Below, piece by piece: positions 10,714 through 62,605 of a DNA stretch of 64,000 nt (positions are counted from its first letter, which is position 1; the number at the start of each line of letters is the position of its first letter). The stretch is from Rhodothermales bacterium. GTDB taxonomy: Bacteria; Bacteroidota; Rhodothermia; Rhodothermales; BA12. The translations under genes and the position numbers were made by a program. The stretch spans positions 8,676-72,675 of the forward strand of contig CAWFGU010000021.1 in NCBI GenBank assembly GCA_963815505.1, read 5' to 3'. The notes beneath the pieces are model-generated. The model ran no database searches. It was given only the letters and a program-made list of their open reading frames with translations, and was not told the DNA's origin.

Positions 10714-10770
10714 AGCCGTTTGTCGCAATTCCGGGCCTGATCGCCCATACCTTTTCTCTACTACGATCCG

Positions 10771-31885: not shown

Positions 31886-32938
31886 TTAGTCGAGCAAGGT
31901 GGACTCGCGCGACAGCGTGCGGGCCGCCTGCTCGACAATGCCGACGGCTCGGGCGTAGTCCATTCGCGTCGGGCCAATCACGCCGACCGTGCCGACCGAC
32001 CCACCCAGCCGATAGCGCGCCGTGACGATCGAAAAGCCTTCCGTGTCGTCGCCTTCGCGCCCGATCGTAATGCGAGCGACGCCCGACGTGCTCGTTTCGT
32101 CTTCGAGAAGCTGCACCAAAAAGCGCTCGTCTTCGAGCATCCCGATCAGGCGACGCAACTCGGCAGGCTGCTGGAACTCGGGCTGATCCAGCAGCGGCGA
32201 CGTGCTCGATACCTCGACGCGTTCGGTCTCAGGCTCAGCAAAAAACACGTGCTGCCGGTCGACGATGAGGCGAACGACTCCAGCGCGCGTCTCATCGTCC
32301 AGATCGCGGACGCGCTCGGCGAATGTCCGGCGGATCTCCTCCATCGCCAGACCGGCGATGCGCTCGTTCAGACGCTGGACGACGCGTTCGAGTTGGTCGC
32401 GCGGTACATCGGTGTCGAGTTCGAGCAGGATGGTTTTGACGAGTCCGTCGCGTAGGCTGAGGACGAAGATGACGCGGCTGGACGAGACGGGAACGGCTTC
32501 GATGCGTTCGAGAATGCCCGTTGCCAATCGCGGTTTGAGGACGACGCCGAGCAGGTTCGACAGCGTACCCAGCAGCTTGCTCGTCTCGCGCAGCAGGCCG
32601 TCGGTGTCGCCGCTCATGCGGTCAAGTTCGGCGCGGAGTAGATGCTTTTCGGCGCGTGACAGGAGCGGTGCCGCCATCAACTCATCAACGAACGTGCGGT
32701 AGCCCTGCGCCGTCGGAATCCGTCCCGCCGACGTATGCGGCTGATTCAGGTAGCCCGCCGCTCCGAGCGCACTCAGCGTCGAGCGGATCGACGCGCTGCT
32801 GATGCCCAGGTCGTAGCGCTCGGCCAGAATCCGCGAGCCGACCGGGCCCGCCGTCTGCACGAACGCCTGCACGGCGGCGCGCAGGATCGACCGCTCGCGT
32901 TCGGAAAGCGTCGGGGATTCGGACGGTGAGCGGGACAT
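31886..32938 (-). CDS. hrcA: Heat-inducible transcription repressor HrcA
   Basis: LSERERSILRAAVQAFVQTAGPVGSR and the position upstream of grpE-dnaJ. Confidence 0.9.
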   Translation of the reverse strand: MSRSPSESPTLSERERSILRAAVQAFVQTAGPVGSRILAERYDLGISSASIRSTLSALGAAGYLNQPHTSAGRIPTAQGYRTFVDELMAAPLLSRAEKHLLRAELDRMSGDTDGLLRETSKLLGTLSNLLGVVLKPRLATGILERIEAVPVSSSRVIFVLSLRDGLVKTILLELDTDVPRDQLERVVQRLNERIAGLAMEEIRRTFAERVRDLDDETRAGVVRLIVDRQHVFFAEPETERVEVSSTSPLLDQPEFQQPAELRRLIGMLEDERFLVQLLEDETSTSGVARITIGREGDDTEGFSIVTARYRLGGSVGTVGVIGPTRMDYARAVGIVEQAARTLSRESTLLD

Positions 32939-33147
32939 GCGGAGGCGTGGAGGTGGTAAGTCGGTCGGACGCGCAAGATCGGTGCCTGGGTGCCGGAACG
33001 GCAGAACGGAACTAACGGTGGGTAGCCAGGCCGTAACGGCATGTCAGAACGGCTGTTTCTCTCTAGCTCGTGCGCTTTTGGTTGGACACGGTTAGGAATC
33101 TTGCTGCAAAACGCCGACGTTTCGCCCGACTCCACTCCCGCCACGCT

Positions 33148-41760: not shown

Positions 41761-42294
41761 ATGCCCGCTACCCCGCACGTCCAGAACTCCAACGAGCCGA
41801 CGAGAGCAGAAGCCATCGAAACACTCGCCGACATCCTCACCGGCTACCGCGTCTGTATGCTCGTCACACGCGACGCGTCGGAAGGCGTACTCCGGGGCCG
41901 CCCGATGGCACTGCGCAACGACCGGTTCGAGGGCACGCTCTGGTTTCTGACCGATAGCCGCTCGCACAAAGTGGACGAAGTCGAGGACGAGCGCGACGTA
42001 TGCGTAGTCATCAGCGATCCGAGCCAGGAGCGCTCCGTCTCGGTGTCCGGTAAGGCGTTCTTGTCGCGCGACCGTGCCAAGATCCATGAGGTCTGGACCG
42101 AGGCCGACATGTCGTGGTTTCCCGAAGGGCCAGACGGCGAGCACGTGGCGCTGCTGCGCATCGAGGTGACGGCGGCAGAGTATTGGGATGCCCCGGACGC
42201 CAAACTCGTCCAACTCTTCGGCCTCGCCAAAGCACTCGTCACGGGCGAGCCATACAAAGGCGAAGGATCCGAAAATGCCAAGCTGGAGATGTGA
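41761..42294 (+). CDS. Pyridoxamine 5'-phosphate oxidase-fold / general stress protein 26-like
   Basis: ATG 41761. CMLVTRDASEGVLRGRPMAL...TLWFLTDSRSHKVDEV...AEYWD. Confidence 0.7.
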   Translation: MPATPHVQNSNEPTRAEAIETLADILTGYRVCMLVTRDASEGVLRGRPMALRNDRFEGTLWFLTDSRSHKVDEVEDERDVCVVISDPSQERSVSVSGKAFLSRDRAKIHEVWTEADMSWFPEGPDGEHVALLRIEVTAAEYWDAPDAKLVQLFGLAKALVTGEPYKGEGSENAKLEM

Positions 42295-42324
42295 GGGCCC
42301 TGGTCGGGCCAGTCTTCAGACAGA

Positions 42325-42361
42325 CAACCGCTCGGCCCTCACTTCGAGAGCCGAGCGGTTG
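42325..42361. terminator. Bidirectional terminator hairpin between convergent genes
   Basis: CAACCGCTCGGC-N13-GCCGAGCGGTTG, a perfect 12-bp stem. Confidence 0.6.
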
Positions 42362-42365
42362 CGTT

Positions 42366-43325
42366 CTACCCGACGGCGGTCGGCGTGTCGAACTCGCCGA
42401 TGAAGCCGATTTCGGTTTGGAGCGCGTACCCCGTTTCCTTTTCGACCGTCGCCTGGATGTGGTCGATTAGGCCGCGCACGTCAGCGGCTTTGGCATTGTC
42501 GGCGTTGATCAAGATGTTGGCGTGGCGCTGCGTGACCATCGCTCCACCGACGCGCAGTCCTTTCATGCCGCACCCGTCGATCAGCCGCCCCGCACCGACG
42601 CCTTCGATTTTTTTGAAGATGGAGCCAGCCGACGGCTCACTGTGCAACGGCGGATGGCGCTCGCGGCGCCACTCGATGTTGGCTTCCATCACCTCGTGCA
42701 TGCGGCCCCGGTCGCCGGGCGTGAGTTGGAACGTGGCCGATAGCACGATGTCGTCCGTGATGTGGAGCGTCGAATAGTCGTATCCGAAGTCGAACCACTC
42801 GTGATCGACGATGCGGCGCGCGTTGTCCTCGCCCAGCAGTTCGGCCGACAGCGTGACCTCCTCGACGAACATCGTCCGCTCGCGTTCGGGCGGCGGCGAT
42901 AGAAAGTGCAGGTTCTGCCACAACGCCCCGCCGACCGTCGACGGGATGCCGACGTAATGCTCCAAACCGGACAAACCCGCATCGACAGCCTCGGTGATCA
43001 CGTCGGGATATAAAACCGCGCCGCTCTCGGCCCACAACTGCGCACCGTCGCGGTCGATGCGGACGTGCCGGGCGGCATTTCTGATCACGAGCCCGCGGTA
43101 GCCGCCATCGCCGACGAGAATGTTGGCGCCCAAGCCGAGGAGGAAGAAGGGAATTTCTAACTCGCGTGCCACCGTAACGGCTTCGGCAAGTTCATCTGCC
43201 GTGTGAGCTTCGAAAAACAGATCCGCCGGGCCACCGATTCGGAACGTGGTGTAGGGAGCGAGTGAAACGTCGCGCTGGAGTCGGGGACCAAGGCGAGCGG
43301 AAAGCGCTTCGTGTTTTCTAGTCAA
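42366..43325 (-). CDS. murB: UDP-N-acetylenolpyruvoylglucosamine reductase
   Basis: LAPYTTFRIGGPADLF, GLGANILV, PSAGSIFKK. Start proposed at TTG 43325; the tracked ORF runs to 43484. Confidence 0.85.
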   Translation of the reverse strand: MTRKHEALSARLGPRLQRDVSLAPYTTFRIGGPADLFFEAHTADELAEAVTVARELEIPFFLLGLGANILVGDGGYRGLVIRNAARHVRIDRDGAQLWAESGAVLYPDVITEAVDAGLSGLEHYVGIPSTVGGALWQNLHFLSPPPERERTMFVEEVTLSAELLGEDNARRIVDHEWFDFGYDYSTLHITDDIVLSATFQLTPGDRGRMHEVMEANIEWRRERHPPLHSEPSAGSIFKKIEGVGAGRLIDGCGMKGLRVGGAMVTQRHANILINADNAKAADVRGLIDHIQATVEKETGYALQTEIGFIGEFDTPTAVG

Positions 43326-43566
43326 AATCGGTGATGGAGAAGAATAGGGCAAGGGTAAGATGGGGATAACGGCGCTGGTGTAAAAGCGTGCCCGTGCAAC
43401 GACGCCGCGACACCATTGGATGCCCATCCGAACGGCGATACGGTTCACCGGCATTGCACGACGATCCACAGATGGGGCACACAACTGAGCACCGACACAC
43501 TTTCATAACACTTGGGGCGCACTATCTTCTCTTTCCACGCGCCACCCCACTTTACCGGCGCACCGA

Positions 43567-43580
43567 TTGCCATTTGGCAA
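43567..43580. promoter_or_regulatory. Perfect palindrome TTGCCA-TT-TGGCAA, 31 nt upstream of the susC ATG (candidate operator)
   Basis: Read directly; no cognate regulator identified in the window. Confidence 0.3.
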
Positions 43581-43610
43581 CAACCCCCACACACCATACT
43601 TATAGCTACT

Positions 43611-46600
43611 ATGAGAAGCACGCTCCTCAGCGCGCTCCTCGGCCTGCTCCTCGTCCCCGCTGCCTTTGCGCAGGTTGGAACGATTCGGGGCACGGTCGTG
43701 GACCAAACGGGACAGGCTGTCCCCGGCGCCAACGTTGTCTTTGAAGGCACCACGCTTGGCACCGCCACCGACCTCGACGGGATGTACGAGTTTTCGGCTC
43801 CCGCCGGCACCTACACGCTCGTCGTCACCGCCATCGGCTACCGCACGCAGCGCGTGGCAGGCATCGACCTGACCAGCAGCGGCGTCCTCACGCGCGATGT
43901 TGTCGATCAACGCCGACGTTCTCGGCCTCGACGACGTCGTCGTTACCGGATTCTCGACGACCGCACGCCGCAACGTAACGGCCTCGATCGGAAGCGTTGG
44001 AGGCGAGAAACTCCGCGACACGCCAGTCGCCACCGCTGACGCCGCCCTCCAGGGCCGCGTGGCTGGTGTGACCGTCCTGCGCTCATCGGGCACGCCCGGT
44101 GGCGGCGTCTCGGTCCGCGTCCGCGGTGCCACTTCGATTAACGGTTCCAACGAGCCGCTCTACGTCATCGACGGCGTCCCGGTCACCAGCGGCAGCTTCT
44201 CCAACGTCGGAGCAGGTAACCAGGGCCTCAACGCCCTATCGACGCTCAGCCCCTCCGACATCCAGTCGATGGAAGTGCTCAAAGATGCCGCCGCTTCGGC
44301 CATCTACGGCACACGCGGCGCCAACGGCGTCGTTCTGATTACGACGCGTCGCGGCCAGTCCGGCCAGACGACGATCGAGTTCGAAAGCAGCTTCGGCTCC
44401 AACTCGTTCGGCCCCGTCGAATACGAGTCGCTGACCGGCCCGCAGTACATCATGCTCCGCAACGAAGGCGTCGTCAACCAGTTCGGCCCGACTCGCTTCG
44501 GTACCACATTCTACGGCAACCCCGACACGATGTCGACGACCAACTACTGGGACGAAGTCACTCGTACGGGTACCGTCCAGAACTACCGCCTCTCGGCTTC
44601 GGGTGGCGACAGCCGCACGCAGTACCGCGTCTCGGGTAACTACACCGACGAAGAAGGCGCCGTCATCGAAGCCGGGCAGCAGCGCGTAGGCGGTCTGCTC
44701 AGCGTCGACCACCGCTGGAACGAGCGCGGAACGGTTTCGGCTACCGCCAACTACAGCCGCTCGACGGTTCAGCGTGTCGGTAACGACAACTACATCTACG
44801 GCGTGCTCACCAACGGTCTGCTTGCCGCTCCTAACCAGCCCGTCTACTCGGGCGACCCGGCCGCAGGGCGTCTTCAACCGGTCGTCGGGCCCCTTCTCCA
44901 ACCCGGTCGCCGAAGCGCAGAAAGACTTCGACGCCGTGCGCACGGCATTCGTCGGTAACGCAGGCATCGGCTACGAAATCCTGCCCAAGCTGACGGCTCA
45001 GGCCAACATCGGGATCAACCGCTTCGACCTGAACGAGACGCGCTTCTCGCCCTCGTTCACCTCGCAGGGCGGCGGTACGAACGGCCAGAACGTCCGCAGT
45101 GGTACGTTCTTCCAGAACGCGATCCTGCGTGGTACGCTAAACTATCGCAACCTGTTTAACGGTGTCCACAACGTGTCCGGCTTGGTCGGCTTCACGTGGG
45201 AAGACAGCGATCAGAACGAGATCACGGCGACCGGAACGCAGTTCGCGACCGACGACGTGTACGCACTCTCGATCGCTGCCGTGACGACGGCCACCGGCTC
45301 GTCGACGGAAAGCGGCCTGCGTCGCGCCGTCGCCTCGGGCGAGTACAGCTACGACAACAAGTACCTGGCTACGTTCTCGCTCAGCGTCGACCAGTCGTCG
45401 CGCTTCGGTGAGGAAAACCAGACGGGCGTCTTCCCCGCCTTCTCGCTAGGCTGGAACGCACAGCAGGAAGGATTCCTGCAGAATGTCAGCTGGATCGACC
45501 TGTTCAAGATCCGTGGATCCTACGGACTGACGGGTAACGACGACATCGGCAACTTCGCCGCACGCGCCCTCTACGGTGGCGGTCAGGACTATGCCAACAC
45601 GCCGGGCTTCGGTCCCGCGTCGCTGGGTAACGCCTTCCTGTCGTGGGAAGAGACCGAGCAGGCCTCGTTGGGCCTCGACTTCGGCTTCTTTACGGGCCGT
45701 CTTGGTGGCTCGGTCGAGATCTACCAGAAGGATACCAACCAGGGTATCTTCAACCAGCCGTTCCCCTCGTCGAGTGGATACTTCGGTCGCGTCGGCAACG
45801 TAACGGAGTTGCGTAACCGGGGCATCGAGTTCCAGCTGGACACGCGCAACATCGACACGCGCAACTTCTCGTGGAACACGACGATCAACTTGGGCTCGAA
45901 CGACAACCAGGTCGTCAAGCTCGTTGACGGTGACTTCGACGGCGAAGGCGACCCGATCGACTCGGGCTTTGCCAGCCGCATTGCCGAAGGCGAGCCGCTC
46001 GGAGCGTTCTACGGATGGCGCTGGGACGGCGTCTTCCAGAGCGAAGACGAACTGTGCAAGAGCCAGACGGGTGAGACCTCTGCCGCTCGCAACACGCGCT
46101 GTGCAGCCGCAGGATTGGCCTTCCAGAGTGGAAACAGCTCGCTCGGAGATTTCCGGTTCAAGGACATCAACAACGATGGAATCATCAACGGCGATGACCG
46201 CGAGATTCTCGGCCACGCCAACCCGGACTTGTTCGGTGGTATCACGAATGACTTCACGCTGTATGGTTTCAACGTGAGCGCTTTCCTGCAGTTCTCGCTC
46301 GGTAACGAGACGTTCAACGCGTCGCGCCAGTTCTACCAAGGACCGGGGCAGACGTTTGGCACGAGCGCCGCGTCGCTCAACCGCTGGACGCCCGAGAACA
46401 CCAACACGGACATTCCGCGTGCCACGAACAGCGATCCCAACGACAACGACCGCGACTCGGATTACTTCATGGAAGACGGCTCGTACCTCCGCCTGCGTAC
46501 GCTGACGGTTTCGTACAACGTGCCTTCGCGCTTCCTGAACCAGATCTCGATGCGCGGATTGCGCGTGTTCTTCGTGGGTGAAAACCTGTGGACGACGACC

Positions 46601-46723
46601 AATTACAGCGGTCTCGACCCCGAAGTCTCGACGTTCGACCGCTCGAACACGGCGTTCGGCACGGACTTCTTCACGTACCCGCAGTCGCAGCGCTTCACCG
46701 TAGGCGCCCGCGTCACGCTCTAA
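43611..46723 (+). CDS. SusC/RagA-family TonB-dependent outer-membrane receptor; frame broken at about 43890 and about 44870
   Basis: Signal peptide MRSTLLSALLGLLLVPAAFAQ, a carboxypeptidase-regulatory-like domain (GTVVDQTGQAVPGANVVF...GYR), a plug (LDDVVVTGFST...LQGRVAGV), and a barrel ending FTVGARVTL. Three tracked ORFs in frames 0, 1 and 2 join seamlessly. Confidence 0.85.
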
Positions 46724-46810
46724 ACAGGTCACGTCCTAAACGAAACGAACGCACCCCGCGCTGGGGACTGGTTGCCAGACTCGGCGCGGGGTGCTTTTCC
46801 CCTTTACCCA

Positions 46811-48094
46811 ATGAATCGATTTATTCTCGCATGCGGCGCACTCGCGCTGCTCGTCCTCCCGGCGTGCGATTCGGTGCTCGACACCGAGCCCATCGCCTCG
46901 CTGACACCCGAAGTGGTGTTCAGCAACGGCGAAAACCTCAACGCCGCTCTCGTCGCTACGTACAATGCTCTTCAAGGCTTCTACGACGATTACACCATCA
47001 TGCCCGAGCTGGCGGCTGACAACGCCATTCACACCGGCTCTTTCCCCTCGTGGCAGGAAGTCGACGGAATCACCAACATTCCAGCCAACAATGCCGAAGT
47101 GCTCGGGCAGTGGTCCGGCTCGTATAGTCTGATCAACCTCGCCAACAGCGTCATCGTACTGGGCGCCGACACGCCGACCAACATCGACTTCTCCGAGACT
47201 GAGAAGGCTCAGGTCATCGCTCAGGCCAAGGTGCTGCGCGCGTTTGCGTATCACAACTTGGTGCGCTGGTTCGGTGATGTGCCGCTCATCCTTCAGCCCA
47301 CCACGCCCGCTAGCGAAGGTGCTACTCTGTTCGTGGGTCGCACGGCTGCTTCGGCTGTCTACGACCAGATCGTAAAGGATCTGACCGAAGCAGAAGCTAC
47401 TCTGCCGGCTTCGGGTCCTAGCGCGTTCGTCTCTTCGACAACGGCCAAGGCTCTCCTCTCGCGCGTATATCTCTACACGGAGAACTATGCCGGAGCAGCA
47501 GCCAAAGCGCAGGAAGTCATCTCCAGCGGCTCGTTCTCGGGAGCGGATCCTGTCTGGAACCTGACCTACTCGGTCAACGACCAGAATGGCATGGCCTTCT
47601 TCGCGTACCGCGCGGGACGTTACGAGTATGCTCCGGACCCGGACATAGCGAGTGCTTACGCCAGCGCCGATTCGACGCGCCGCAAGCGCAACATCGCCTT
47701 CGTAGGCCCCGACCTGACGATCGTCAAGTACACCGATCTCGCGACGGGTTCGGACCCGCTCTTCCCGATTCGCTACGCGGAAGTGGTGCTCAACCGCGCT
47801 GAAGCACTGGCGCGCACGAGCAACGAGAGCGGCGCTCGCGACCTGTTGAACCAGATACGCCCCGACGACCTCGGCGACATAGCCGCCACGGTTACGGGTA
47901 CTGGCCTTATCGACGCAATCATTGCCGAGCGACGCCTCGAGTTGGCTTTTGAAGGTCACCGGTGGCACGATCTGATTCGTACCGGCCGTGCACAGAGCGA
48001 ACTAGGCTTCACCGACACCAAAGCGCTGCTCTGGCCGATCCCACAGCGTGAGTTGGACATCAACTCCAACCTGACGCAGAATCCTGGCTACTAA
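46811..48094 (+). CDS. SusD/RagB-family nutrient-binding lipoprotein
   Basis: Lipobox MNRFILACGALALLVLPAC. RAFAYHNLVRWFGDVPL, ERRLELAFEGHRWHDLIR, LWPIPQRELDIN. Confidence 0.85.
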   Translation: MNRFILACGALALLVLPACDSVLDTEPIASLTPEVVFSNGENLNAALVATYNALQGFYDDYTIMPELAADNAIHTGSFPSWQEVDGITNIPANNAEVLGQWSGSYSLINLANSVIVLGADTPTNIDFSETEKAQVIAQAKVLRAFAYHNLVRWFGDVPLILQPTTPASEGATLFVGRTAASAVYDQIVKDLTEAEATLPASGPSAFVSSTTAKALLSRVYLYTENYAGAAAKAQEVISSGSFSGADPVWNLTYSVNDQNGMAFFAYRAGRYEYAPDPDIASAYASADSTRRKRNIAFVGPDLTIVKYTDLATGSDPLFPIRYAEVVLNRAEALARTSNESGARDLLNQIRPDDLGDIAATVTGTGLIDAIIAERRLELAFEGHRWHDLIRTGRAQSELGFTDTKALLWPIPQRELDINSNLTQNPGY

Positions 48095-48112
48095 GCCTAC
48101 TGCGCATGCGCG

Positions 48113-48146
48113 GAGCGGCCGTCTCACCTAGGTGGGGCGGCCGCTT
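48113..48146 (+). terminator. Hairpin after susD
   Basis: (G)AGCGGCCG-N16-CGGCCGCT(T), loop contains CACCTAGGTG, followed by CTGCGTTATC (weak T-tract). Confidence 0.45.
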
Positions 48147-48300
48147 CTGCGTTATCAAACAGAGGCCCGAGTTGGAAATGGTTCGTTTCGTGCCGTCATT
48201 GCGAGAGAAAATGAGCACCCATAGGGTGAAATCAGCTCTAGTCCCGCTGGAGGCACAGCTTTTGCGGAAGACCCTGGTACCCCCTCCCCCCTATACGATT

Positions 48301-49855
48301 ATGGCAGAGACGACACCACCGCCCGCCGAGGCGCCTGAGTCGGCGCGGACGGCTACTCCGGTCAACGTCGGCCCTAAAGAACTGCTGCCGGTCAGGCGCC
48401 GCACCGCTACCGGTGTTGAGCGCATGGCCTTCGAACCAATCAAAAACGAAGGGCACGGTGACGATGACCCCTCGGATGGCGGTAGGCTCTACGTTCGGCG
48501 CGCGTTTCTCTTCGGGTCGATCTCGATCATTCTAATGGCGATCGTCTGGATCGCGATGGAGAATCCGTTCCCCAACACGGCGCTGTCTGCGTTAGCCGTC
48601 GAGCTGAGCTGGCAGGGGCTGTTCGTGTTCTCGTCGGTTGTTGCGCTGATCTTGTTTCTGATGCTGCTGTTGATGCGCTACTTCGGGCTGATGATCATGT
48701 CGTACCTCAACGTGGCGAGCTACACGCACCACGAAACCGAAGAGAGCGAGATCGGGACGCCAATGATTTCGATTATCGTGCCTGTCTATAACGAAGGCGT
48801 CCTGCTCCGCTCCACGATTCAGTCGCTGCTCCAGCAGAACTATCCCAAGTACGAAATCGTGATCGTCGACGACGGCTCGACCGACGAAACCGGTGACATC
48901 GCCCGGGAGATGGTCGGCGAGTATGGGCACGTAACGGTCAAACTCGTGGAGAAACCTAACGGCGGCAAGTCGACGGCGCTCAACGCGGGCATTCAGGTAG
49001 CCGTGAGCGACTTCGTGCTCAACGTAGACGGCGACTCGCAGCTTTCGCCCAATACGCTGCGGCGGTGTATCCGCCACTTCTCGGACCCCAAGCTGGGAGC
49101 GGTCGCGGGCAACGTCAAGGTGACCAACCGCACCAACATGATCACGCGCTTGCAGGCGCTCGAGTACGTCGAAGGCCTGAACATGGCCCGGAGCGCGCAG
49201 AGTCTGATCAAGCTCGTCAACATCATCCCCGGACCCGCTCGGGCTGTTTCGCAAGCAGGCGATCATCGACGCCGGATGGTACGCGTCGGATACGTTCGCC
49301 GAAGACTGCGACGTGACGCTCAAGATGATCCGCGAGGGCTGGAAGGTCGATTACGAACCCGAGGCGCTGAGCTACACCGAGGCGCCCGACAAGTGGCTAG
49401 ACCTGCTCAAACAGCGCTACCGGTGGACCCGCGGCATCGTCCAGGCCATCCGCAAGCACCGCGACCTGTTCTTCAACCCAACGATCAACTTTGGCGGTAC
49501 GCTCGTGATGTGGTCCATGGCGTTCGAGAGCCTGATCTGGCCCATCATGAACGTCTTCGCCAACGTCTACTTTGTTATCGTCGCCGTAACGACGGGCGCC
49601 AGCTACTACCTGATCTTCTGGTGGCTCATCCTGACGATTCTCGACATGATCGCGGCCATGTACTGCGTCGCCGTCGAGAAGGAAGAGGCTAGCCTGATTC
49701 TCTACTCGGTCTTCTACCGCATCTTCTTCATCCTCTTCGTCGACGTGTGCAAGGCGTTTGCGCTGATCGAAGAAGGACTGGGCCTGGGTATGACCTGGGG
49801 CAAGCTGCAGCGCATCGGCTCGGGCGAGGAGTCGTCTGCTCCGGCCACGACTTAG
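48301..49855 (+). CDS. Processive-type family-2 glycosyltransferase (PgaC/IcaA/NodC/BcsA-like synthase); frame broken at about 49235 (extra C in CCC)
   Basis: ATG 48301. 2 N-terminal TM and 3-4 C-terminal TM. IIVPVYNE, VDDGSTDET, NVDGDS, IPGP|LGLFRK, AEDCDVT, QRYRWTRG. Confidence 0.8.
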
Positions 49856-50044
49856 AGATTCAGCACTTCCCGCTTTGCGACACATAGTGAGACGGAGCAC
49901 CGTCTTCCTATTCAGTACCACCCCCTTACGGCGTAAAATAAGCCCTTCTGCACTCCGGCTAATGGTCGGGCACGGTGCTTGTCTTATCGCCCTCACGTTC
50001 TCCCCCCGGCAGCCCCCTCTGCCTTCACTGCGCCCTCTGGACTT

Positions 50045-50845
50045 ATGGAACTCATACCCATCCTCTCGACGATCGTCCTCGTGATGACGATCGCCACCTG
50101 CATCCTCGCTGTTGCTGCCTACTTCCTCTACAAAGCCCGCGAGCGTAAGGCGCGTAAGGCGAGAGATAACGGGACCGCCCCGGCCATCGTCGAGATGCAG
50201 GAAGAGCCTCATATGCTCGTCGCACCTCAGGGCAGCGTTCCCATCGCTGCGCTTCCTCAGGCGCAGGGTGCCTACAACGGAGACCAACGGTACCTCAGCG
50301 CCCCGGCCATGGCACCGGCAGACGGTTATTACGGCGAGCAGCAGCGCTATGACGAACAGCCTTACGCCTACGCGCAACAGTCCAACGGGAATGCGCAGCA
50401 CCAGCAGCAGTCGAGCGCCGCTCCGGGCGGCTTCGACTACGACGATCGCCGCCGCGACCAGCAGCCCGAGCGCACCTGGTCTAACACCGATGACCAGAGC
50501 AGCCGGCCCGACCAACGCCAGCAGGAACGACAGCCGCAACAGCAGCAGTCCGGCTCCATGTTTTACGAGTACACCAACGACGGCTTCATTCCCGTCGACG
50601 CTCAGCAGCAGCCTCGACGCCAGGTACTACCACCGGCGCCGCCTCCCGTACCCACGAGTAGCAGCGCCGAGGCCGCTCAGCACTACGCCAGCCGCCAGCA
50701 GGCCGAAGCCGACGGTGCTCAGGCCTTCGCGTACGAGCAGCGCGCAGAGGCCGAGCAGGCGCAGCGCCAGGCCGCGCAGATGCAGCAGCAAGCTCAGCGT
50801 CGCGACGACAACCGGCAGCAGGAAGATGGTTTCGCGTGGCTCTGA
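50045..50845 (+). CDS. Single-pass membrane protein with about 220-aa Gln/Ala/Asp-rich low-complexity tail
   Basis: MELIPILSTIVLVMTIATCILAVAAYFLYKARERKARKAR, then Q-rich sequence (…QHQQQSS…QRQQERQPQQQQSG…QAQRQAAQMQQQAQRRDDNRQQ…). Confidence 0.5.
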   Translation: MELIPILSTIVLVMTIATCILAVAAYFLYKARERKARKARDNGTAPAIVEMQEEPHMLVAPQGSVPIAALPQAQGAYNGDQRYLSAPAMAPADGYYGEQQRYDEQPYAYAQQSNGNAQHQQQSSAAPGGFDYDDRRRDQQPERTWSNTDDQSSRPDQRQQERQPQQQQSGSMFYEYTNDGFIPVDAQQQPRRQVLPPAPPPVPTSSSAEAAQHYASRQQAEADGAQAFAYEQRAEAEQAQRQAAQMQQQAQRRDDNRQQEDGFAWL

Positions 50846-50889
50846 GCCTGCGCCACCGTCCTCTCCACCTCTGACGCTCCCCCCACGCC

Positions 50890-53266
50890 ATGCTGGACTT
50901 CCTCTCTCGCTTCATTGACCATCGTGTCAACGGGCTATGGCTGTTCGTGCTCGGCGTCGGCCTAGTCGCCGCCGCCTTGCTGACGTACGTCTACCTGCTC
51001 GAAGGCGTAATGGGTACGTTTTCGATTCAGCAGGCGAACCCGGCCAAGCTCGTGCAAACCACGACCGACGCCAGACCTCGCGTGGCGCTGCTCAACTCGA
51101 ACTATACGCGGCGGGCCTACGCCGTCAACAACCCACAAGACACGACGGCGGCGTGGGTCAACCGGGCGCTCAACTCGTGGAACGACCTGCTCCTGGGCCA
51201 GGAGTTCGCCGACTACACGCAGATCGATGACGAGCAGCTCGAACGAGGCGACCTCGCGGGCTACGATCTGCTCATCCTTCCCTCTTCTCTCGCCTTGTCG
51301 GATCGGCAGATCGAGATGGTCAAGGAGTTCATGGAGCGCGGCGGCAGCATCTGGGCGTCGTGGCAACCCGGCATCTACGACGAGACCGGCGCATGGCGCG
51401 GGTGGACGTTCGCCGAGGAGGTATTCGACGTGACCTACATCGGCGAGGTGGGCCGGTCGAACAGCAACTTCCAGGCGTACACCGACACCTTTCCGGGGTA
51501 CACGCCGCCGGGGATGTACTTCCCTGAGCGCGTCACGTCCAGTGGCGTGCGCGTGGCCGACGAGGGAGTAGGCGACTCGCTCGCCGAGGGCGTGCGTGAC
51601 ACGGAGTTGCCGACGACTCTGCGTCAGCAGCGTAGACGAGACGCTCAGGTCGCCGGATTCACTCCGCTGCGCGACTACGTATGGATGGACACGTCGACGA
51701 CGCGGCTGCCACGCGCCGACTTCGCCATCGCCGACACGCTCCGCACGTCAATCAGGGGACTCGACGGAGAGACGCGCATACGCGATGCCGTCGCCGTCAC
51801 CTACTACACGTGGAACGGCCTAGACACCGAGACCCCGCGCGTGCCCTATCCCAACACCAGTTCGGGCATCCGCCGTATGACGTTGCGCGCGGGCACCCCG
51901 GTTACAGGTAACATCGCGTCGGGTTATAGAGCCAAGGTGCAGGTATTCACGCCTGCCGTCGCCCTCGAAACCAACGGCAATCGAGGCAAGCCCTTCGCCT
52001 TCTGGTACGACTTCGCCACCGAAGACCTCAACGTCAGCGAAGCGCTGCGCACCTCGACCGCGGCCGTTTATGGCACGTACGGTTCGAACAACGGGCGCTT
52101 CGTCTACATGGGCTTCCAGCGCAACGCACTCTACATCGACCGTAACGACTTAGAAGACCAGGAGGCATTCGCCCAGCTGTTCAGCAACCTGCTGCGCTAC
52201 CTGCTACGCGATCCCGTCACCTGGACCCACGACTGGCCCGCGCCCTACGATGCCGCCGCCATGATCGCTGTCGTAGACGATGCCGATCAGGCGGATGGGC
52301 TGGAAAGCGTCGCGCGGCAGCTGAGCCGCGATGGGATCGGTGGTACGTATTTCGTTCGGCCCAACGCGACCGCGGACGATGCTCTGCTCCGCCAACTCTA
52401 CTCTCAAGGCGACGTGGGCGTCTACGGTGACTTCCGCCGAAACACCGACGGGTCAACGCTGGCTCAGACGCGAACGCTTCGAGGAGATGCGCCAACAGCT
52501 CGAGCAGCGCGTCGGCGGGCGGGTGAGCGGATATCGTCCCTCGACCGCAGGTATCGTAGACACTACGACGCTGCGGGCGCTCTCGCTCGGCGGATACGGG
52601 TACTTCCTGCCCGACTCTATCGGCAGAAAGATGGCTCCCAAGATTATGGGCGTTCCGAATGAGCGGCTGGTCCGCGTAGGCTACACGTCGCGCTCGGATC
52701 GGGACATCGACATTCGGAGTCTGTCGGCCTCGCTGCTCCTGCAAGACGTGACACGTGCCGCCTATGAGGGCAGCCTCTACCGCATGGTCCTGCACACCGA
52801 CGGACTGGCGACGCCTGACGGTCTTCCGATCCTGAGCCAGGTCATCCGCTCGCTCAAAGACCAGAACTTCTGGATCGTTTCGGGCGACGAGTTGGCGCAC
52901 TGGTGGCGCTTGCGGCGCAACGTGGAAGTCGCGACGAGCCAGCCGGGACCGAACCGCGTCAACCTCGAGATCTCCAACCTCAACGCCGAGTCCGTCGAGA
53001 ACATCGCGATCAGTCTGGTGCCTGGCTTCCCCGTCGTCGACGCGTCGAGTGTGAACGTGCGGTCCGAGATCGTCGAACTGGCCGAAGAAGTCGGGCTGCG
53101 CGAGCGGACGGCCGTGCGCGCTCTGGTTTCGGCTGATGGAAGCGTGATCACGCTCCTCCTCGACCGGATGCGCCCGCAGCAGACGGCCGTCCTGCAGGTC
53201 AACCTGTGCACCAAGGAGGAAGACTGCCTCGCCCGCCTCGCCATCGCCGACTCCGGCAACGACTAA
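50890..53266 (+). CDS. Membrane-anchored large protein. The N-terminal half may be a class-I glutamine-amidotransferase-like fold and the C-terminal half is polysaccharide-deacetylase-like. Frame broken at about 52450 (extra G in GGG).
   Basis: N-terminal TM LWLFVLGVGLVAAALLTYVYLL. YDLLILPSS...EFMERGGSIWAS. AAMIAVVDDADQ...GYRPSTAG...GYGYFLPDS...ELAHWWRLRRNVEV. Family assignment is from memory of similarly annotated proteins and is not verified. Confidence 0.45.
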
Positions 53267-53326
53267 GCCCTGGTGCACGGCCTGCCCCCGTCGGCTGCCG
53301 ACCGACGCCCCGCCATCCTCCCCCCC

Positions 53327-55867
53327 ATGCGCGTTTTCTTCTTCCCCCTCCTGCTTGCGGCGCTCCTCGCCCCGCACTCGGCCTCCGCTCAGGCTATCCC
53401 GCCCGGCGTCACGGCTGCTCAGCCGCTGGCGAGCGTCGCCACGGGCCTGGGCGAATTGCGCATGACGACGGTCGACAAGCCGTTCGTGTTCGTGCACCGC
53501 CCCGACGTAGCCCCCGCCGATTGGAAGCGCCCGGTCGAGCAACTGCGCGACGTCGTGCGCTCATGGGAGGTCTTCTTGCTTGGGCTGGGCATCCCCTACC
53601 AACTCATCGACGACGACGACCTCGAGGACGGATTGCCGCGCCACGCCCGCGTACTCGTGTTGCCGGGCTCCGAACTGATCACGCGCAGGCAAGAGCGCCA
53701 GGTCGAGCGCTTCGTGTCGCGCGGCGGAGGGTTGGTGGCCCAGGGCCGCATCGGGCTGATGGACGACGACGGACGCGGCGGCGACCGCAACGAAGAGTTT
53801 TTTCGCACCCTGTTCGGCGCCGAGTATGTCGACGCGCTTCCGCCACAAGAAGGTGGCATCTTCCAATCGCTCGACGGATCGCACCCCGTTACGGCAGGAA
53901 TCGAACCCGGCTATCTGATGAACTTAGTGGCTCAGGTGCCGACATCGGCGGCGCTGCCCATCACGGCCCAGCCACTGGGCGCCCTGTTGACGTACAACGC
54001 GCCCGATCAAGCGGCCTTTGACGGTCTGACGATGCTGATGAGCGGCGAACACGAGCGGGGCCGCTTCGTCTGGACCCGCTTCCGCCCTTCCGACGTGTCG
54101 CGCGAGCCGGAGCAGCAGCGGGTATACGTGACGCTGCTGATCAACGCGCTGGCCTACGTCACCGACGTACCGGTAGCGAGCATTCGCCCATGGCCGCGTG
54201 GACGCGTGTCGGCCGTCACGCCGGTCGTGATCCCGCTCGTCGGCGACCTGAACCTCTTTCGCCCGTCGATGACCCGGCTGATGGATGCCCTCGAACGCGA
54301 GCAATCTCCGGCGACGTTCTTTCTCACGTCCGAAAAAGCGGCACTCTTCACCGACATTATGGAGCGCGGCGCGCAAATCGGCGAGTTGGCGCTGTCTTCC
54401 GCCGACGATCGCGTGCTGCGCGGACGTACGCTCGACGAGCAAATCCAGCGTTTGACCGACGGCGTCGAGTTGCTCTCGCGCTACGGCTCGAACATCAGCG
54501 GTATCCATCCGCCTGCGGGCTTCTACGACGAGAACACGATCCGCGCGATGGAGGAAGCCGGACTGCGCTACCTGCTTCGCTTCCCCCCGCACCCCAGTGC
54601 AGGCATCGACCCGTTGGGACTGACCGAACGCGCCGACTATCGCGAAACCCGCTTCGGCTACCTGATCGACCCGGACACGCTCCGCGTCATCGGCGAGGTC
54701 GGCATCTCAGATGTGAACGCGGCTGGAATCGTCTCGACCGAGGCGATTCCCAGCCAGATCACGTTCGACGACAGCATCGGCCGTCCCGTCGACGAAATCG
54801 ATCGGCTGGGCACCAGTCCTGACGCCGTTCGCAACGGCGCACCGCGCAACGTGCCACCTGATCCGCGCGATGGGGCTGTGCCCGATGTATACGATCGTCG
54901 CGACCGCACGGCGGGTTACGAAGACGAGGAGCCAGTCGCGGTCGATCCCCTCGCCGACTTTCGCACACGCGAACGGACACGGACGCGCCGCCGCCCTGGA
55001 AGCCGCACGAGTTCGGCGATCCCCGAGCCTGCGCGAACCCCGACCGCGCGGACCACGACCGCCGAGCAGCGCAGCGACCAAGCCGCCGCCGACCCAACGT
55101 TGCGGGACAACCGGACCCCCAACCGCGCCTTGCTCCACGGATTACCCGCCAATGAGTCGGATCCGCGGTTCAACAACCGTCCCCTTCGCCCCGGAGGCAC
55201 GTCGGTGATGATGGAGGGCGAGACGTCGACCGGCTACACCGATGGAACGATGGCCGACGGTGCACTGCCGACACCCGAACCCGAAGACGTGTATTCGCCC
55301 GGCACACAGGGCGTAGCCCGCCCCTTACCCCAGTCGCGCCGGCTCGTGGCGATGCCGATTCTCGGACGAACGACGTACGCCATCACGGCAAACCCGGCCA
55401 TCGGCGAGGTGCCCGCGCTGCAGTTCGCCGCCTACCGCGACGACTTCCTCAACGTCCACGACGCCCGCGGCCTCTACGTCATGCCGATCCAGGCCGAGTT
55501 GCAGGCTAAAACCGACGAGCAGGCCGATGTCGTCGCCCAGGTGGCGCGCTATGCCAGAGCCGAAGGAGCTTGGGTGGCGACGCTCAGCCAGGTCCGCGAG
55601 TGGTGGCTGCAGCGGGACCGCGTGCGCGTCTCTCTCTCCGACTTGAACGAAGACGGCGTCACCGTGACGCTCGAAAACGGCAACCGTCTGCCCGTTACCG
55701 GACTGAGCATCGACCTCTTCGTCGATGTGCCCGAGCGCCGATCCAGCCGCCTGGGCAACACATCGGCTTACCTCGCTCCGCCCGAGGAGGAAGACCGAAT
55801 GGTCCTCGTCATCGCCAGCCTCTCGCCCGGCACGTCCACGTATCGCATCGCATTCGAGCGCGACTGA
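53327..55867 (+). CDS. Secreted paralog of the preceding protein, with about 180-aa disordered insertion
   Basis: Signal peptide MRVFFFPLLLAALLAPHSASAQ. It shares three blocks with 50890..53266: SWEVFLLGLG...DDDDLEDG...VLVLPGSE...RFVSRGGGLVAQ; SGIHPPAGFYDENTIRAMEEAGLRYLL; and QVREWWLQRDRVRV. R/T/P/D-rich insertion at about 54780-55330. Confidence 0.45.
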   Translation: MRVFFFPLLLAALLAPHSASAQAIPPGVTAAQPLASVATGLGELRMTTVDKPFVFVHRPDVAPADWKRPVEQLRDVVRSWEVFLLGLGIPYQLIDDDDLEDGLPRHARVLVLPGSELITRRQERQVERFVSRGGGLVAQGRIGLMDDDGRGGDRNEEFFRTLFGAEYVDALPPQEGGIFQSLDGSHPVTAGIEPGYLMNLVAQVPTSAALPITAQPLGALLTYNAPDQAAFDGLTMLMSGEHERGRFVWTRFRPSDVSREPEQQRVYVTLLINALAYVTDVPVASIRPWPRGRVSAVTPVVIPLVGDLNLFRPSMTRLMDALEREQSPATFFLTSEKAALFTDIMERGAQIGELALSSADDRVLRGRTLDEQIQRLTDGVELLSRYGSNISGIHPPAGFYDENTIRAMEEAGLRYLLRFPPHPSAGIDPLGLTERADYRETRFGYLIDPDTLRVIGEVGISDVNAAGIVSTEAIPSQITFDDSIGRPVDEIDRLGTSPDAVRNGAPRNVPPDPRDGAVPDVYDRRDRTAGYEDEEPVAVDPLADFRTRERTRTRRRPGSRTSSAIPEPARTPTARTTTAEQRSDQAAADPTLRDNRTPNRALLHGLPANESDPRFNNRPLRPGGTSVMMEGETSTGYTDGTMADGALPTPEPEDVYSPGTQGVARPLPQSRRLVAMPILGRTTYAITANPAIGEVPALQFAAYRDDFLNVHDARGLYVMPIQAELQAKTDEQADVVAQVARYARAEGAWVATLSQVREWWLQRDRVRVSLSDLNEDGVTVTLENGNRLPVTGLSIDLFVDVPERRSSRLGNTSAYLAPPEEEDRMVLVIASLSPGTSTYRIAFERD

Positions 55868-55956
55868 TCGCTCGGCTCATCCACGACAGCATTAATTAGG
55901 GGGACGAAAAACGAGTCTTATACCCCTTGTTGCACCTCCGTACATACGCTGCTGGA

Positions 55957-56736
55957 TCAGCGAAACGGCTTCTCCTTAGACAAAAAGGCGCCCAGATCGT
56001 CGACACCGATGGGACCGTGGCGGTAGAGCAGCGGCTCGCCGAACGTCGCGCCGACGCGATAGCCAAACGTACGGGCTTGCGCTTCGACGAATGCGTGGTA
56101 GGCTGGATTGGAGATGAACGTCTGCGGTTCATTGTCGCCTTCGTCGTCCGCCCCCGGCGTGTGGAACTGCGAGCCGAAGGCGTGGAGGGCTGACATCCGC
56201 TGCTCCCACACGTCCGATACGTCGACGACGAGCGACGGGGTGAACGGAATCGACTGCATGTAGTGAAGCGCGTGGCTGGGCCGGTAGGGCTCCTGCGCCT
56301 TGCCGTCCGCGCCCGTCGTTTCGATCGCTCGCAGCCCCGAGTAGAAGAGCGCATCGCCGACGAGTCGAGCCGCCGCGCCGTGGTCCGGATGGCGGCACTC
56401 GGGCGCGTTGAGCAGCACGATATGAGGGCGGTAGGTGCGGAGGGCACGGATGATGGACAGGCGCGTCTCCGGAGTGTTTTCGATAGCTCCATCCATCATG
56501 CCCAGATTTTCGCGCGCGTGGATGCCCATGATGCCTGCGGCGACCTTAGATTCTTCGATTCGCCCTTCGGGTGTACCTCTGCTACCCAGCTGCCCTTGCG
56601 TCACGTCCACGATACCGACGCGATGCCCATCGCGCACCAAGCGGCAAACAGTCCCACCCGCACACAACTCGACATCGTCGGGGTGGGCGGCGAAGGCGAG
56701 AACATCGACTGGGTCAGAAGCACCGAAAATCAGCAT
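55957..56736 (-). CDS. bshB1: PIG-L/LmbE-family N-acetylglucosaminyl deacetylase (BshB1-like)
   Basis: VDVLAFAAHPDDVELCAGGT...GIVDVTQGQLGSRGT...RHPDHGAA. Confidence 0.7.
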   Translation of the reverse strand: MLIFGASDPVDVLAFAAHPDDVELCAGGTVCRLVRDGHRVGIVDVTQGQLGSRGTPEGRIEESKVAAGIMGIHARENLGMMDGAIENTPETRLSIIRALRTYRPHIVLLNAPECRHPDHGAAARLVGDALFYSGLRAIETTGADGKAQEPYRPSHALHYMQSIPFTPSLVVDVSDVWEQRMSALHAFGSQFHTPGADDEGDNEPQTFISNPAYHAFVEAQARTFGYRVGATFGEPLLYRHGPIGVDDLGAFLSKEKPFR

Positions 56737-56904
56737 GGGGAGAAAGTGTGTAGGAGCGGGAAGCGCATTCGGAACAATACTGTTGCGCCAAACGCCGCAC
56801 CGATTGCACGAAAGATCATAACATTGGATTCAGTAGCGCGCGAGCAGGTATAGACACTTACCCGTATTTTGCTACCGTTCACATCCAACAACCGAACTCA
56901 CACC

Positions 56905-57396
56905 ATGCCTACACGGCTCCTCACCCCTCTACTGGCTCTCGGCCTCCTGTTCACTGTCACCGCCTGCGAAAACGATACGGCGGCGGAAGAAAACATGGAG
57001 GACGTCATGGCAGAAGAGATCGCTCCGATGAACCCGGACATCGCTTCGACCTACACGGGTCCCGTACAGACGGTCTCCGGCACGATCGAAGCCCTCAACA
57101 TGGGCCTCACCAGCATTCCCGCCGAAGCTGCTCTCCAGAACATCGACGGTTGGATCTTCCAGCTCGAAGGTGCTGACTTCGAAGGCGCCGAAGAGATCAC
57201 CGACAACCTCGAGTCGCTCGCCAGCGAACTGCGCGAGAGCGACCCGGCCGACATCGACGGTGACGACATCGCCGAGCGTCTCGACCGCCTCGGAGAGCTG
57301 ACGACCGCCGCTGCCGCCTTGGCTGCCGGTGCCGCCGCTGGCGAACTCCGCGAGCTGGGCTCGATGCTGACGAGCGCCGGTGCCAGCCTCCGCTAA
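56905..57396 (+). CDS. Hypothetical acidic lipoprotein
   Basis: Lipobox MPTRLLTPLLALGLLFTVTAC; Asp/Glu/Ala-rich mature part. Confidence 0.45.
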   Translation: MPTRLLTPLLALGLLFTVTACENDTAAEENMEDVMAEEIAPMNPDIASTYTGPVQTVSGTIEALNMGLTSIPAEAALQNIDGWIFQLEGADFEGAEEITDNLESLASELRESDPADIDGDDIAERLDRLGELTTAAAALAAGAAAGELRELGSMLTSAGASLR

Positions 57397-57531: not shown

Positions 57532-59998
<2,467 letters not shown>

Positions 59999-61045: not shown

Positions 61046-62499
61046 ATGCAGCCCCTCCTTGACCTCGACCTCCTCGTCGATCCGACCGACGACCTCGACG
61101 TGCCCAAACTGAGCGCGACCGAAACGTCCGGCGCGCGCAGCGTCTACATCGAGACGTACGGCTGCCAGATGAACGTCTCCGACAGCGAAGTCGTCGCGAG
61201 CGTGCTGACCGAGAGCGGCTGGGGACTCACGCGCGACGTGGACAACGCCGACGTGGTGCTCATCAACACGTGCGCCATTCAGGGAGGGAGCCGAGCAGAA
61301 AGTGCGTCGCCGCTTGGCCGACTTCCGCGCCGACAAGGTCAAGCGTGGGCGCGACTTGCAATTGGGCGTCTTGGGCTGCATGGCCGAGCGGCTGCGCGCC
61401 AAACTGCTCGACGAGGAGAAGCTGGTCGACTTGGTCGTTGGGCCGGACGCCTACCGCGATTTGCCGCGCTTGCTCGGACTCGCACGACGAGACCGGGCAG
61501 GCGGCCGTCAACGTGCAGCTGAGCAAGGAGGAGACGTATGCCGATTTGGCGCCGATCCGCTACGACACCAACGGAGTCAGCGCGTTCGTGTCGATCATGC
61601 GCGGGTGCGACAACATGTGCGCGTTCTGCGTCGTCCCGTTCACGCGCGGACGCGAGCGGAGCCGTCCGAGCGCGTCGATTCTGGACGAAGTGAAAGCGCT
61701 GGTCGACGGCGGCTACAAGGAAGTGACCGTCCTGGGGCAGAACGTCAACAGCTATCGGAGCGAGGAGAACGGTGGGCAAGTCGACTTTGCTACTCTGCTC
61801 TACCGCATCAGCCTTCTGTCGGACGATCTGCGCATCCGCTACTCGACGAGCCATCCCAAAGACTGCTCGGCCGACCTGCTCCACGTCCACGCCGAACGCG
61901 CCGGAGTGTGCAACTTCATCCACCTGCCGGTCCAGCACGGATCGACCGAGACGCTCAAGCGGATGCGCCGGACGTATAGTAGGGAGCAGTACCTGCGTCT
62001 GATCGAGCAGGCGCGCGCCATCGTGCCGGACATCGCGTTCTCGACCGACCTGATCGCGGGCTTCTGCGGCGAGACGGACGACGAGCACGCCCAAACGCTT
62101 TCGCTGATGGAGCAGGTGCGCTACGATCACGCGTTCATGTTCGCCTACAGCGAGCGGCCCGGCACCTACGCCGCGCGCAAGTTCGAGGACGACGTGCCCG
62201 AGGCAGTCAAGAAGGAGCGCCTGAGTCAGATCATCCGCCTGCAAAACCAGCATAGCCTGGAGAGCAACAGGCGCGACATCGGCACGATTCAGACTGTTCT
62301 GGCCGAAGGCACGAGCAAACGATCCGACGCTCAACTGATGGGCCGTACCGACGCCAACCGCGTCGTCGTGTTCGACCGCGACCACTACGCGCCGGGCGAT
62401 TATGTGGCCGTCCGCGTCGAAAGCGCGTCGAGTGCTACACTCAAAGGCGTTGCGCTAGGCAAGACGACCATGGCAGGGGAAGGCGTCGCCATCGCATAA
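61046..62499 (+). CDS. miaB: tRNA-i6A37 methylthiotransferase MiaB, frame broken at about 61280 and about 61480
   Basis: [23 protein letters not shown]|[18 protein letters not shown], radical [14 protein letters not shown], and a TRAM C-terminus. Three tracked ORFs in three frames join seamlessly. Confidence 0.9.
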
Positions 62500-62605
62500 C
62501 GTTAGGCGAGCGGGGATAGGCGTACTTTATCCACAGACGCCAAAGCCGACAACACGGCCATGCCGTCACCGTCGCCCTCTCTAACGCTTCTCCTCATCGC
62601 CCGCG

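Follow-up and report, generated by a model that had tools for sequence, protein, structure and literature searches.

A candidate four-gene synthase-dependent polysaccharide module with two CE4-fold paralogues in a Rhodothermales bacterium

Synthase-dependent exopolysaccharide systems are classed in a few families, namely those for cellulose, poly-N-acetylglucosamine (PNAG), Pel and alginate. In the Pel system the protein PelA joins a glycoside hydrolase domain at its N-terminus to an active deacetylase, and the synthase is not a family 2 glycosyltransferase (GT2). Listeria pssA-E and Bacillus subtilis ydaJ-N combine PgaC/BcsA-like GT2 synthases with a non-canonical CE4-like protein, and show that a GT2 of this kind does not necessarily make PNAG. 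Here we analysed a stretch of 64,000 nt (65% GC) from a Rhodothermales bacterium (GenBank assembly GCA_963815505.1, contig CAWFGU010000021.1), referred to below as the window; all coordinates are positions in the window unless another locus is named. On its + strand lies a cassette of four genes, encoding a GT2 synthase, a small membrane protein and two large paralogues, P1 and P2. The best explanation, to which we give a probability of roughly 0.6, is that these four genes (48301-55867) form a synthase-dependent polysaccharide module. The locus is apparently a conserved, unnamed relative of the PNAG type. The features of the cassette are listed here.

48252-48265, + strand: σ54-type -24/-12 promoter-like motif GGCACAGCTTTTGC, which begins 49 nt 5' of the GT2 start codon
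48301-49855, + strand: processive-type membrane GT2 synthase, 517 aa once one extra C is removed
49969-49982, + strand: second σ54-type -24/-12 promoter-like motif GGCACGGTGCTTGT, which begins 76 nt 5' of the small-protein start codon
50045-50845, + strand: small single-pass membrane protein of 266 aa, in the position of PgaD/IcaD
50890-53266, + strand: paralogue P1, 791 aa once one extra base is removed, membrane-anchored
53327-55867, + strand: paralogue P2, 846 aa, with a cleavable signal peptide

Neighbourhoods around P1 and P2 homologues and nine genome loci were compared by tblastn, and individual loci are given below with our numbers (L001 and so on). The nearest public loci were Rhodothermales metagenome-assembled genomes, with P2 orthologues 87-91% identical and leuS DNA 94% identical; looking up the exact P2 sequence on public contigs gave no record. 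The order GT2, small protein, P1, P2 was invariant in about ten distinct Rhodothermales lineages, across which identity fell to 62% for the GT2 and 37% for P2. An earlier analysis of the same DNA, made from its letters and open reading frames alone (the sequence-only reading), had proposed conserved synteny of these four genes as a check, and the synteny was found. The ratio of nonsynonymous to synonymous substitution rates (dN/dS), calculated against three close relatives, was 0.03-0.06 for the GT2, approximately 0.09 for the small protein, 0.07-0.11 for P1 and 0.07-0.08 for P2. All four genes (0.03-0.11) are thus under strong purifying selection. The functional unit is this set of four genes.

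Among described systems the locus is most readily set beside pgaABCD and icaADBC. Its GT2 synthase is nearest to PgaC/IcaA, a small membrane-protein gene follows directly, the periplasmic partners have the CE4 fold, and in relatives a tetratricopeptide-repeat (TPR) protein is encoded upstream, as PgaA is. However, the small protein has one transmembrane (TM) helix and a long disordered tail, with no detectable homology to PgaD/IcaD. Where PgaB has GH153, the CE4 partners have a β-sandwich at the C-terminus and a ThuA/GH42-B-like domain at the N-terminus, and they are duplicated and without catalytic residues. The window lacks a porin gene, and the regulator of relatives, a KaiC-like ATPase, carries a degenerate GGDEF. 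In its workings the system resembles pga/ica, but the GT2 falls short of PgaC by score, the paralogues depart from PgaB in motifs and domains, and PgaA is absent from the window.

PelA is, like P1, a multidomain periplasmic protein of α/β, CE4 and β-sandwich parts in a synthase-dependent system, and it was a Foldseek match of P1 (9cgy, 563 aligned columns), but the overall TM-score to P1 was low (0.25-0.26, rmsd 14.5). BA3943 of Bacillus anthracis also matched P1 in Foldseek (6hm9, 7bkf, 6hpa) and has a CE4 fold without the canonical catalytic residues. However, this Gram-positive protein has a single domain and is encoded outside any synthase operon, so that it shares with P1 no more than the fold and the status of a pseudoenzyme. 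The pssA-E and ydaJ-N systems contain BcsB-like and c-di-GMP receptor proteins, which were not seen here. In the literature we found no described system of this composition, and our search returned canonical pga, ica, bcs and pel work and an unrelated Rubrivivax PEP-CTERM locus only; the sequence-only reading had likewise been unable to name one.

The GT2 synthase carries the motifs that had been read from its sequence. VDDGSTDET, NVDGDS, AEDCD and QRYRW were all found in the frame-corrected protein, in the D, DxD, ED, Q(R/Q)xRW layout, and the motifs were likewise kept in loci L017-L020. The flanking TM bundles were present as hydrophobic segments on either side of the GT domain, at residues ~63-136 and ~395-493, with individual segments at ~63-88, 98-136 and 410-493 (Kyte-Doolittle hydropathy only). 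The Pfam matches were Glycos_transf_2, Glyco_trans_2_3 and Chitin_synth_2, and the top NCBIfam matches were PgaC_IcaA with 208 bits (2e-61), followed by NodC with 121 bits (7e-35). Matches in the PDB included hyaluronan synthase and the cellulose synthase BcsA, with an alignment that runs through the QxxRW region. Judged by these motifs and matches, the GT2 belongs with the processive membrane-embedded synthases, as had been proposed, and is nearer to these than to single-addition GT2 enzymes. Its substrate, as predicted by homology only, is most likely a UDP-HexNAc such as UDP-GlcNAc.

A small membrane protein was encoded directly 3' of the GT2 in every locus examined. The protein had no match in Pfam or NCBIfam. 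It has one hydrophobic segment (residues 1-31), followed by the stretch KARERKARKAR and a disordered tail, and the tail is probably cytoplasmic because a strongly basic stretch comes after the single N-terminal TM helix. This helix (MELIPILSTI[IV]LV.TI.T.ILA..AY.LYK.RER, which begins as ME/DLIPILSTI) was near-invariant across genomes of 61-65% and 32% GC and far better conserved than the remainder of the protein; the sites compared were 50045-50140 in the window, 5170-5601 in L017, 7543-8010 in L018 and 6663-7106 in L020. Other short motifs were also kept, namely (M)FYEYT..GF.PV and a terminal W-x (C-terminal AWL). From its position and the extreme conservation of the TM helix, we infer that the small protein may be an intramembrane partner of the synthase, functionally like PgaD/IcaD. 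The description of this protein as Q-rich was correct for the subclade of the window, where glutamine makes up 16-19%, and did not hold beyond that subclade. Glutamine richness was accordingly dropped as a defining trait.

P1 and P2 were found to be collinear paralogues, with three ordered high-scoring segment pairs (E 2e-9 to 1e-5), which bears out the paralogy suggested earlier. P1 starts with a membrane anchor at the N-terminus, after which come a ThuA/GH42-domain-B-like domain that contains an insertion, then a degenerate CE4 domain and finally a β-sandwich. In P2 a cleavable signal peptide precedes a ThuA-like domain; a disordered insert divides the degenerate CE4 domain that comes next, and a β-sandwich follows. 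AlphaFold2 (AF2) models reached a pLDDT of 82 for P1 and 66 for P2, in which residues 433-668 were disordered. Foldseek identified the N-terminal domain as ThuA-like or GH42-domain-B-like (4jqs with TMt 0.65 for P2, 1t0b, and GH42 enzymes) and the central domain of P1 as a CE4 fold (3rxz with TMt 0.62-0.65, ArnD, many CE4 enzymes and the BA3943 pseudoenzyme). The central domain of P2 matched the CE4 structure 3rxz. The C-terminal domain of both proteins is rich in β-strands, and its reading as a β-sandwich comes solely from the secondary structure of the AF2 models; it had no Foldseek match of its own, and no solved protein matched the whole architecture. In Pfam, P2 matched Polysacc_deac_1 (PF01522) with 31.2 bits against a gathering threshold of 23.1, together with a weak ThuA match, P1 had no PF01522 match, and neither protein matched any PgaB C-terminal family.

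The insert of P2 (54623-55331, residues 433-668) comprises about 235 residues and is rich in R, T, P, D and E. Across ~54700-55200, within this insert, all three forward frames are largely open. The insert is kept as protein in the closest relatives, has other lengths elsewhere, and is gone in distant ones, such as the 623-aa protein of L017.

The C-terminal halves of both paralogues had been likened to polysaccharide deacetylases. This likeness holds for the fold, as seen with Foldseek for both and with Pfam for P2, but not for the catalytic motifs. To place the CE4 motif columns we used P0120 as the anchor, in which HSDDH and RPPY line up with the His-His and RPP of solved CE4 enzymes (3rxz, 7y51), and the motifs tested were MT1 Asp, MT2 HxxxH, MT3 RPP and MT5 His. 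The close homologues numbered 17 for P2 and 58 for P1, and the His-His pair or MT1 Asp was kept in 0/17 and 0/58 of these orthologues, respectively. As judged by their motifs, P1 and P2 are conserved CE4 pseudoenzymes, or at least non-canonical members of the fold. Because the metal-binding and catalytic motifs of CE4 are lost in both paralogues, partial de-N-acetylation of the product has no support from this locus. Most likely, we infer, P1 and P2 act as polymer-binding escorts or scaffolds and not as deacetylases.

The wider family extends well beyond these proteins. A profile search of 1.84 billion cluster representatives gave 2,868 relatives, 158 of them at E ≤ 1e-30, and mostly of ~620 aa. 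Named relatives carry no functional label beyond 'hypothetical' or 'polysaccharide deacetylase family', and the few named homologues of P1 are called 'hypothetical' or named just for a domain. The full CE4 signature (D..E, HxxxH, RPP, DD, H) was retained in 52 of 136 representatives of the wider family. In the acidobacterial locus L019 the CE4 motifs are intact in both paralogues, in L020 the secreted copy is intact and the membrane-anchored copy degenerate, and L018 has one copy only, which is anchored and intact. A further family member with intact CE4 motifs, at 9001-11031 in L021, carries a T9SS Por_Secre_tail and lies near CotH, VTC and LTD genes, with no GT2 nearby. The ThuA-CE4 architecture is thus used outside synthase operons too.

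The alternative that survives best, although we consider it unlikely, is that P1 and/or P2 are still enzymes of a non-canonical kind, with metal-independent chemistry on the CE4 fold or catalysis by the ThuA-like domain. The strong purifying selection is consistent with such a role, as are the invariant acidic and polar residues in the CE4-like domain of P2 (E353, D361, D401, N403, T404 and D437-R439-E440). The Foldseek matches also include CE4-fold proteins of other chemistry, namely the PuuE allantoinase (3cl6) and ArnD (8t0j). However, no orthologue retains MT1 Asp or either MT2 His, whereas relatives with the same type of operon keep them. The structural matches moreover provide a precedent for a CE4 pseudoenzyme (BA3943: 6hm9, 7bkf), and in the ThuA-like domain of P1 and P2 we recognised no signature of catalysis.

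Aligning the intergenic regions revealed a conserved GGCAC-N5-TTG(C/T) element, which corresponds to the σ54 -24/-12 consensus. The 64 kb contain four matches to GGCAC-N5-TTGY, where chance would give 0.96, and each of the four precedes a start codon of its own strand. In relatives the motif was found 47-59 nt 5' of the GT2 in L001, L002, L003, L005 and L007, with a distance of 47 nt from the L001-type start in L006, and 64-77 nt 5' of the small gene in L001, L005, L006, L007, L014, L015 and L017. It was almost the sole + strand match in those orthologous loci. The positions suggest that the GT2 may have its own start of transcription downstream of a hairpin behind the upstream susD gene, with a second start for the small protein, P1 and P2. 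The third match in the window (6089-6102, + strand) begins 98 nt 5' of a dnaJ/cbpA-like gene (6187-7137), and the fourth (32973-32986, - strand) ends 35 nt 5' of hrcA (31886-32938, - strand). All four matches are plausibly real promoters, and this pattern of motifs hints that the cassette may share a σ54 regulon with heat-shock genes. A consensus scan for σ70 promoters and terminators in 43200-57000 gave counts that did not differ from those of shuffled sequence, and an Rfam search of 40-60 kb matched no family.

In more distant relatives the cassette was accompanied by further genes. A TPR protein of 933-1168 aa was encoded directly upstream of the GT2 in L014, L015 and L017 (Rhodothermia), in L018, in L019 (Acidobacteriota) and in L020; L018 has two TPR proteins in tandem, and L020 has 32% GC and SprA nearby. 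For L015, L017 and L018 we mapped the repeats along the protein. The L017 protein (1144 aa) has repeats to approximately residue 790, followed by a non-TPR C-terminus of ~350 aa, a presumed porin. Upstream of the TPR gene we found a KaiC-like ATPase in L015 (2029-3408), L017 (1-22), L018 (1-472) and L020 (879-2153), and the ATPases of L015 and L018 had a weak, degenerate GGDEF match (GNERL or GDRIL) at the C-terminus. By eye, an RxxD is seen 5-6 residues before the degenerate GGDEF in L015 and L018, as in c-di-GMP I-site receptors, and L020 has EKKD. L018 also encodes, 3' of the CE4 gene, a secreted 334-aa protein (9875-10879) without a Pfam match, which may be a glycoside hydrolase of that version of the system.

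In the clade of the window, murB stands where these relatives have the TPR and ATPase genes. When the TPR proteins (L015, L017, L018), the KaiC-like ATPase and the L018 334-aa protein were searched against the 64-kb window with tblastn, no match was obtained, and neither PilZ nor GGDEF is encoded next to the cassette there. The remark in the sequence-only reading that a porin, PgaD and a c-di-GMP module are lacking is therefore valid for the window only, as the small protein occupies the PgaD/IcaD position and relatives have the TPR protein and the KaiC-like ATPase. We regard the cassette as a reduced version, in Rhodothermales, of a cross-phylum operon that comprises a KaiC-like ATPase, a TPR protein with a presumed porin, the GT2, the small membrane protein and either one or two ThuA-CE4 proteins, and whose CE4 domains are in many cases intact. 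Tentatively, and with less than even confidence, we suggest that this wider operon may represent an undescribed cross-phylum family (Rhodothermia, Acidobacteriota and low-GC Bacteroidota-like genomes) beside Bcs, Pga, Pel and Alg. The Rhodothermales form would be a derived one, in which both deacetylases are pseudoenzymes and which is wired to a σ54 regulon with hrcA and the dnaJ-like gene.

In the mechanism that we propose for the four-gene module, the GT2 would polymerise a sugar nucleotide at the inner membrane and thread the chain through its own transmembrane channel. Together with the small protein it would make and translocate a β-linked HexNAc-type chain. The membrane-anchored P1 and the secreted, soluble P2 would bind or escort the emerging chain in the periplasm without deacetylating it. 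Transcription would proceed from the two conserved σ54-type promoters, before the GT2 and before the small gene, independently of susCD, and export across the outer membrane, if any, would go via a component encoded elsewhere.

Several points weigh against this mechanism. With respect to the sugar, the 208 bits of the GT2 do not reach the PgaC/IcaA equivalog cutoff (TIGR03937, 422.3 bits), so that by score the GT2 does not count as a PgaC equivalog, and other polymers are made by related GT2 enzymes. That P1 and P2 only bind the polymer is deduced from missing canonical residues, and the invariant acidic residues E353, D361 and D401 of P2 could support a different chemistry. Neither an outer-membrane conduit nor an ATPase or c-di-GMP module is encoded within the 64 kb. 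When the last 355 aa of the TPR protein of relatives were compared with PDB sequences, nothing meaningful matched, which leaves the β-barrel nature of this part presumptive, and in a large protein database the TPR C-terminal domain was found in just 4 fragments, none on large contigs of the clade of the window. The σ54 assignment is a motif match, and a GAFTGA scan of the window, to which the search for rpoN and enhancer-binding proteins was limited, gave no match.

The neighbours of the cassette are as follows.

42372-43340, - strand: murB, divergent upstream neighbour
43611-46723, + strand: susC/ragA-type TonB-dependent receptor in three frames, a neighbour outside the core cassette
46811-48094, + strand: susD-family lipoprotein, a neighbour in the same variable insertion as susC
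48108-48152, + strand: GC-rich terminator-like hairpin at the 3' edge of the inserted susCD segment
55957-56736, - strand: bshB1, a PIG-L deacetylase of bacillithiol biosynthesis, outside the cassette

The sequence-only reading had combined six genes into one locus headed by susC and susD, which with the downstream PIG-L gene would make a partly de-N-acetylated GlcNAc polymer (PNAG/chitosan-like). The six co-oriented + strand genes do lie where it had placed them, with spacers of 87, 206, 189, 44 and 60 nt; the second and the last had been given exactly, and the other three 1 nt too long (88, 190 and 45). These short spacers argue for one locus, as do the similarity of the GT2 to PgaC/IcaA and the CE4 fold in both paralogues. 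In addition, some susC(D) lies beside the GT2 in 3 of the 4 closest relatives, and bshB1 adjoins the cassette in most Rhodothermia loci. Nevertheless, the comparative data largely refute the six-gene proposal, which we now regard as very improbable, as detailed below for its two ends; between these, neither paralogue retains the catalytic motifs of CE4.

Upstream lies a genuine SusC/RagA and SusD pair of the import type, as in utilisation systems, which has no conserved link to the cassette. SusC has CarbopepD_reg and Plug domains in Pfam; its three pieces cover positions 2-60, 73-364 and 396-981 of the SusC/RagA model TIGR04056, and the TIGR04057 signature scored 66 bits. SusD matched SusD_RagB and SusD-like_3. 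In L001, a relative with 90% identity, however, murB directly abuts the GT2, there is no susCD, and window positions 43272-48169 are replaced by ~240 bp; homology with L001 resumes at 48169, just past the hairpin. L006 and L009 have co-oriented susCD genes whose proteins are only 25-40% identical to those of the window (SusD 29-40%), compared with 94% for the GT2 (L006). L005 has a third, non-orthologous version of a SusC-like gene on the opposite strand, whose identity also falls within the range of 25-40%. By tblastn and synteny, susCD was found next to the cassette in none of L001, L002, L003, L007 and L014-L017, nor in any of the more distant loci. One susCD pair is thus inverted and one close relative has none.

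The hairpin just after the susD stop codon was highly stable in RNA folding (-47.3 kcal/mol, z -5.7), and 0 of 200 shuffled sequences were as stable. A similar hairpin, followed by a T run, was present in L006. As susCD is missing or non-orthologous in relatives, a hairpin follows susD, and a separate GT2 promoter motif lies downstream of it, susC and susD are a strain-variable insertion between murB and the GT2, outside the cassette. The sequence-only reading had itself named such a hairpin, ending the susCD transcript with separate regulation downstream, as grounds for giving up the link to susCD, and susCD can no longer be taken as the head of the block. SusC as an export conduit was also considered and was dropped because it is not conserved. 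Window positions 43440-44345, comprising the upstream region and the first ~730 nt of susC, are ~71% identical to positions 92-983 of L009. Since this 5' part of susC is ~71% identical and the barrel and susD are just 29-40% identical at the protein level, most of the susCD pair appears to have been replaced by recombination at a hot spot beside the cassette.

At the other end, the PIG-L gene scored 275.1 bits against a cutoff of 182.5 with TIGR04001, the BshB1 equivalog model, and its product has no signal peptide. In most loci it is found together with leuS; in L002 and L007 its companion is DinB, and in L017 bshC. This gene is the bacillithiol-biosynthesis gene bshB1 in a conserved housekeeping neighbourhood, and a role as polymer deacetylase was rejected, as the product is a BshB1 equivalog and cytoplasmic. 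With bshB1 so assigned and the CE4 motifs lost, the proposal that the polymer is partly de-N-acetylated is left without support from this locus. On the upstream side, murB (TIGR00179, 190 bits against a cutoff of 144.5) adjoins the cassette in L001, L002, L003, L007 and L016, and abuts the GT2 where the susCD insertion is missing. A gene with an LCCL domain lies between a PNPOx-like gene and murB in L001 (2696-3662) and is missing in the window (42287-42371), which makes a second small indel.

Three genes of the six contain a total of four frame changes, in susC (~43900 and 44857-44900), in the GT2 (~49229-49232) and in P1 (~52476). Alignment with locus L001, which is 83% identical, showed one extra C at ~49229-49232 in the GT2 and one extra base at ~52476 in P1. 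The essential gene leuS (- strand, 59170-59183) also spans two frames in the window, and miaB (+ strand, 61100-62500) is spread over three or four; the L001 orthologues of both are intact. The breaks in leuS and miaB point to an indel error every 2-3 kb or so in this region of the assembly. Because these two genes in the same window are also broken, the frame changes in susC, the GT2 and P1 are probably indel errors of long-read assembly and not marks of pseudogenes. The pseudogene interpretation was rejected because of the broken leuS and miaB and the low dN/dS. That the cassette is a decaying remnant making no product, as frameshifts in the GT2 and P1, TPR and ATPase genes missing from the window and lost catalytic motifs might suggest, is hardly credible given dN/dS of 0.03-0.11 in all four genes, conserved promoter motifs, intact orthologues in L001, L005 and L006, and leuS and miaB frameshifts that point to assembly error.

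For annotation, these results are a warning that co-oriented susCD pairs and nearby PIG-L genes are not to be taken as parts of an exopolysaccharide locus. The four-gene module brings a new accessory-protein architecture, in which a CE4 domain stands between a ThuA-like domain and a β-sandwich, and a universally conserved single-pass partner of the synthase. Its interest comes chiefly from this widespread, unnamed accessory family and from the conserved pair of pseudoenzymes. The Rhodothermales form is a natural experiment, as both paralogues are without catalytic residues and yet strongly selected, and it may inform on the role of CE4 pseudoenzymes in polymer export.

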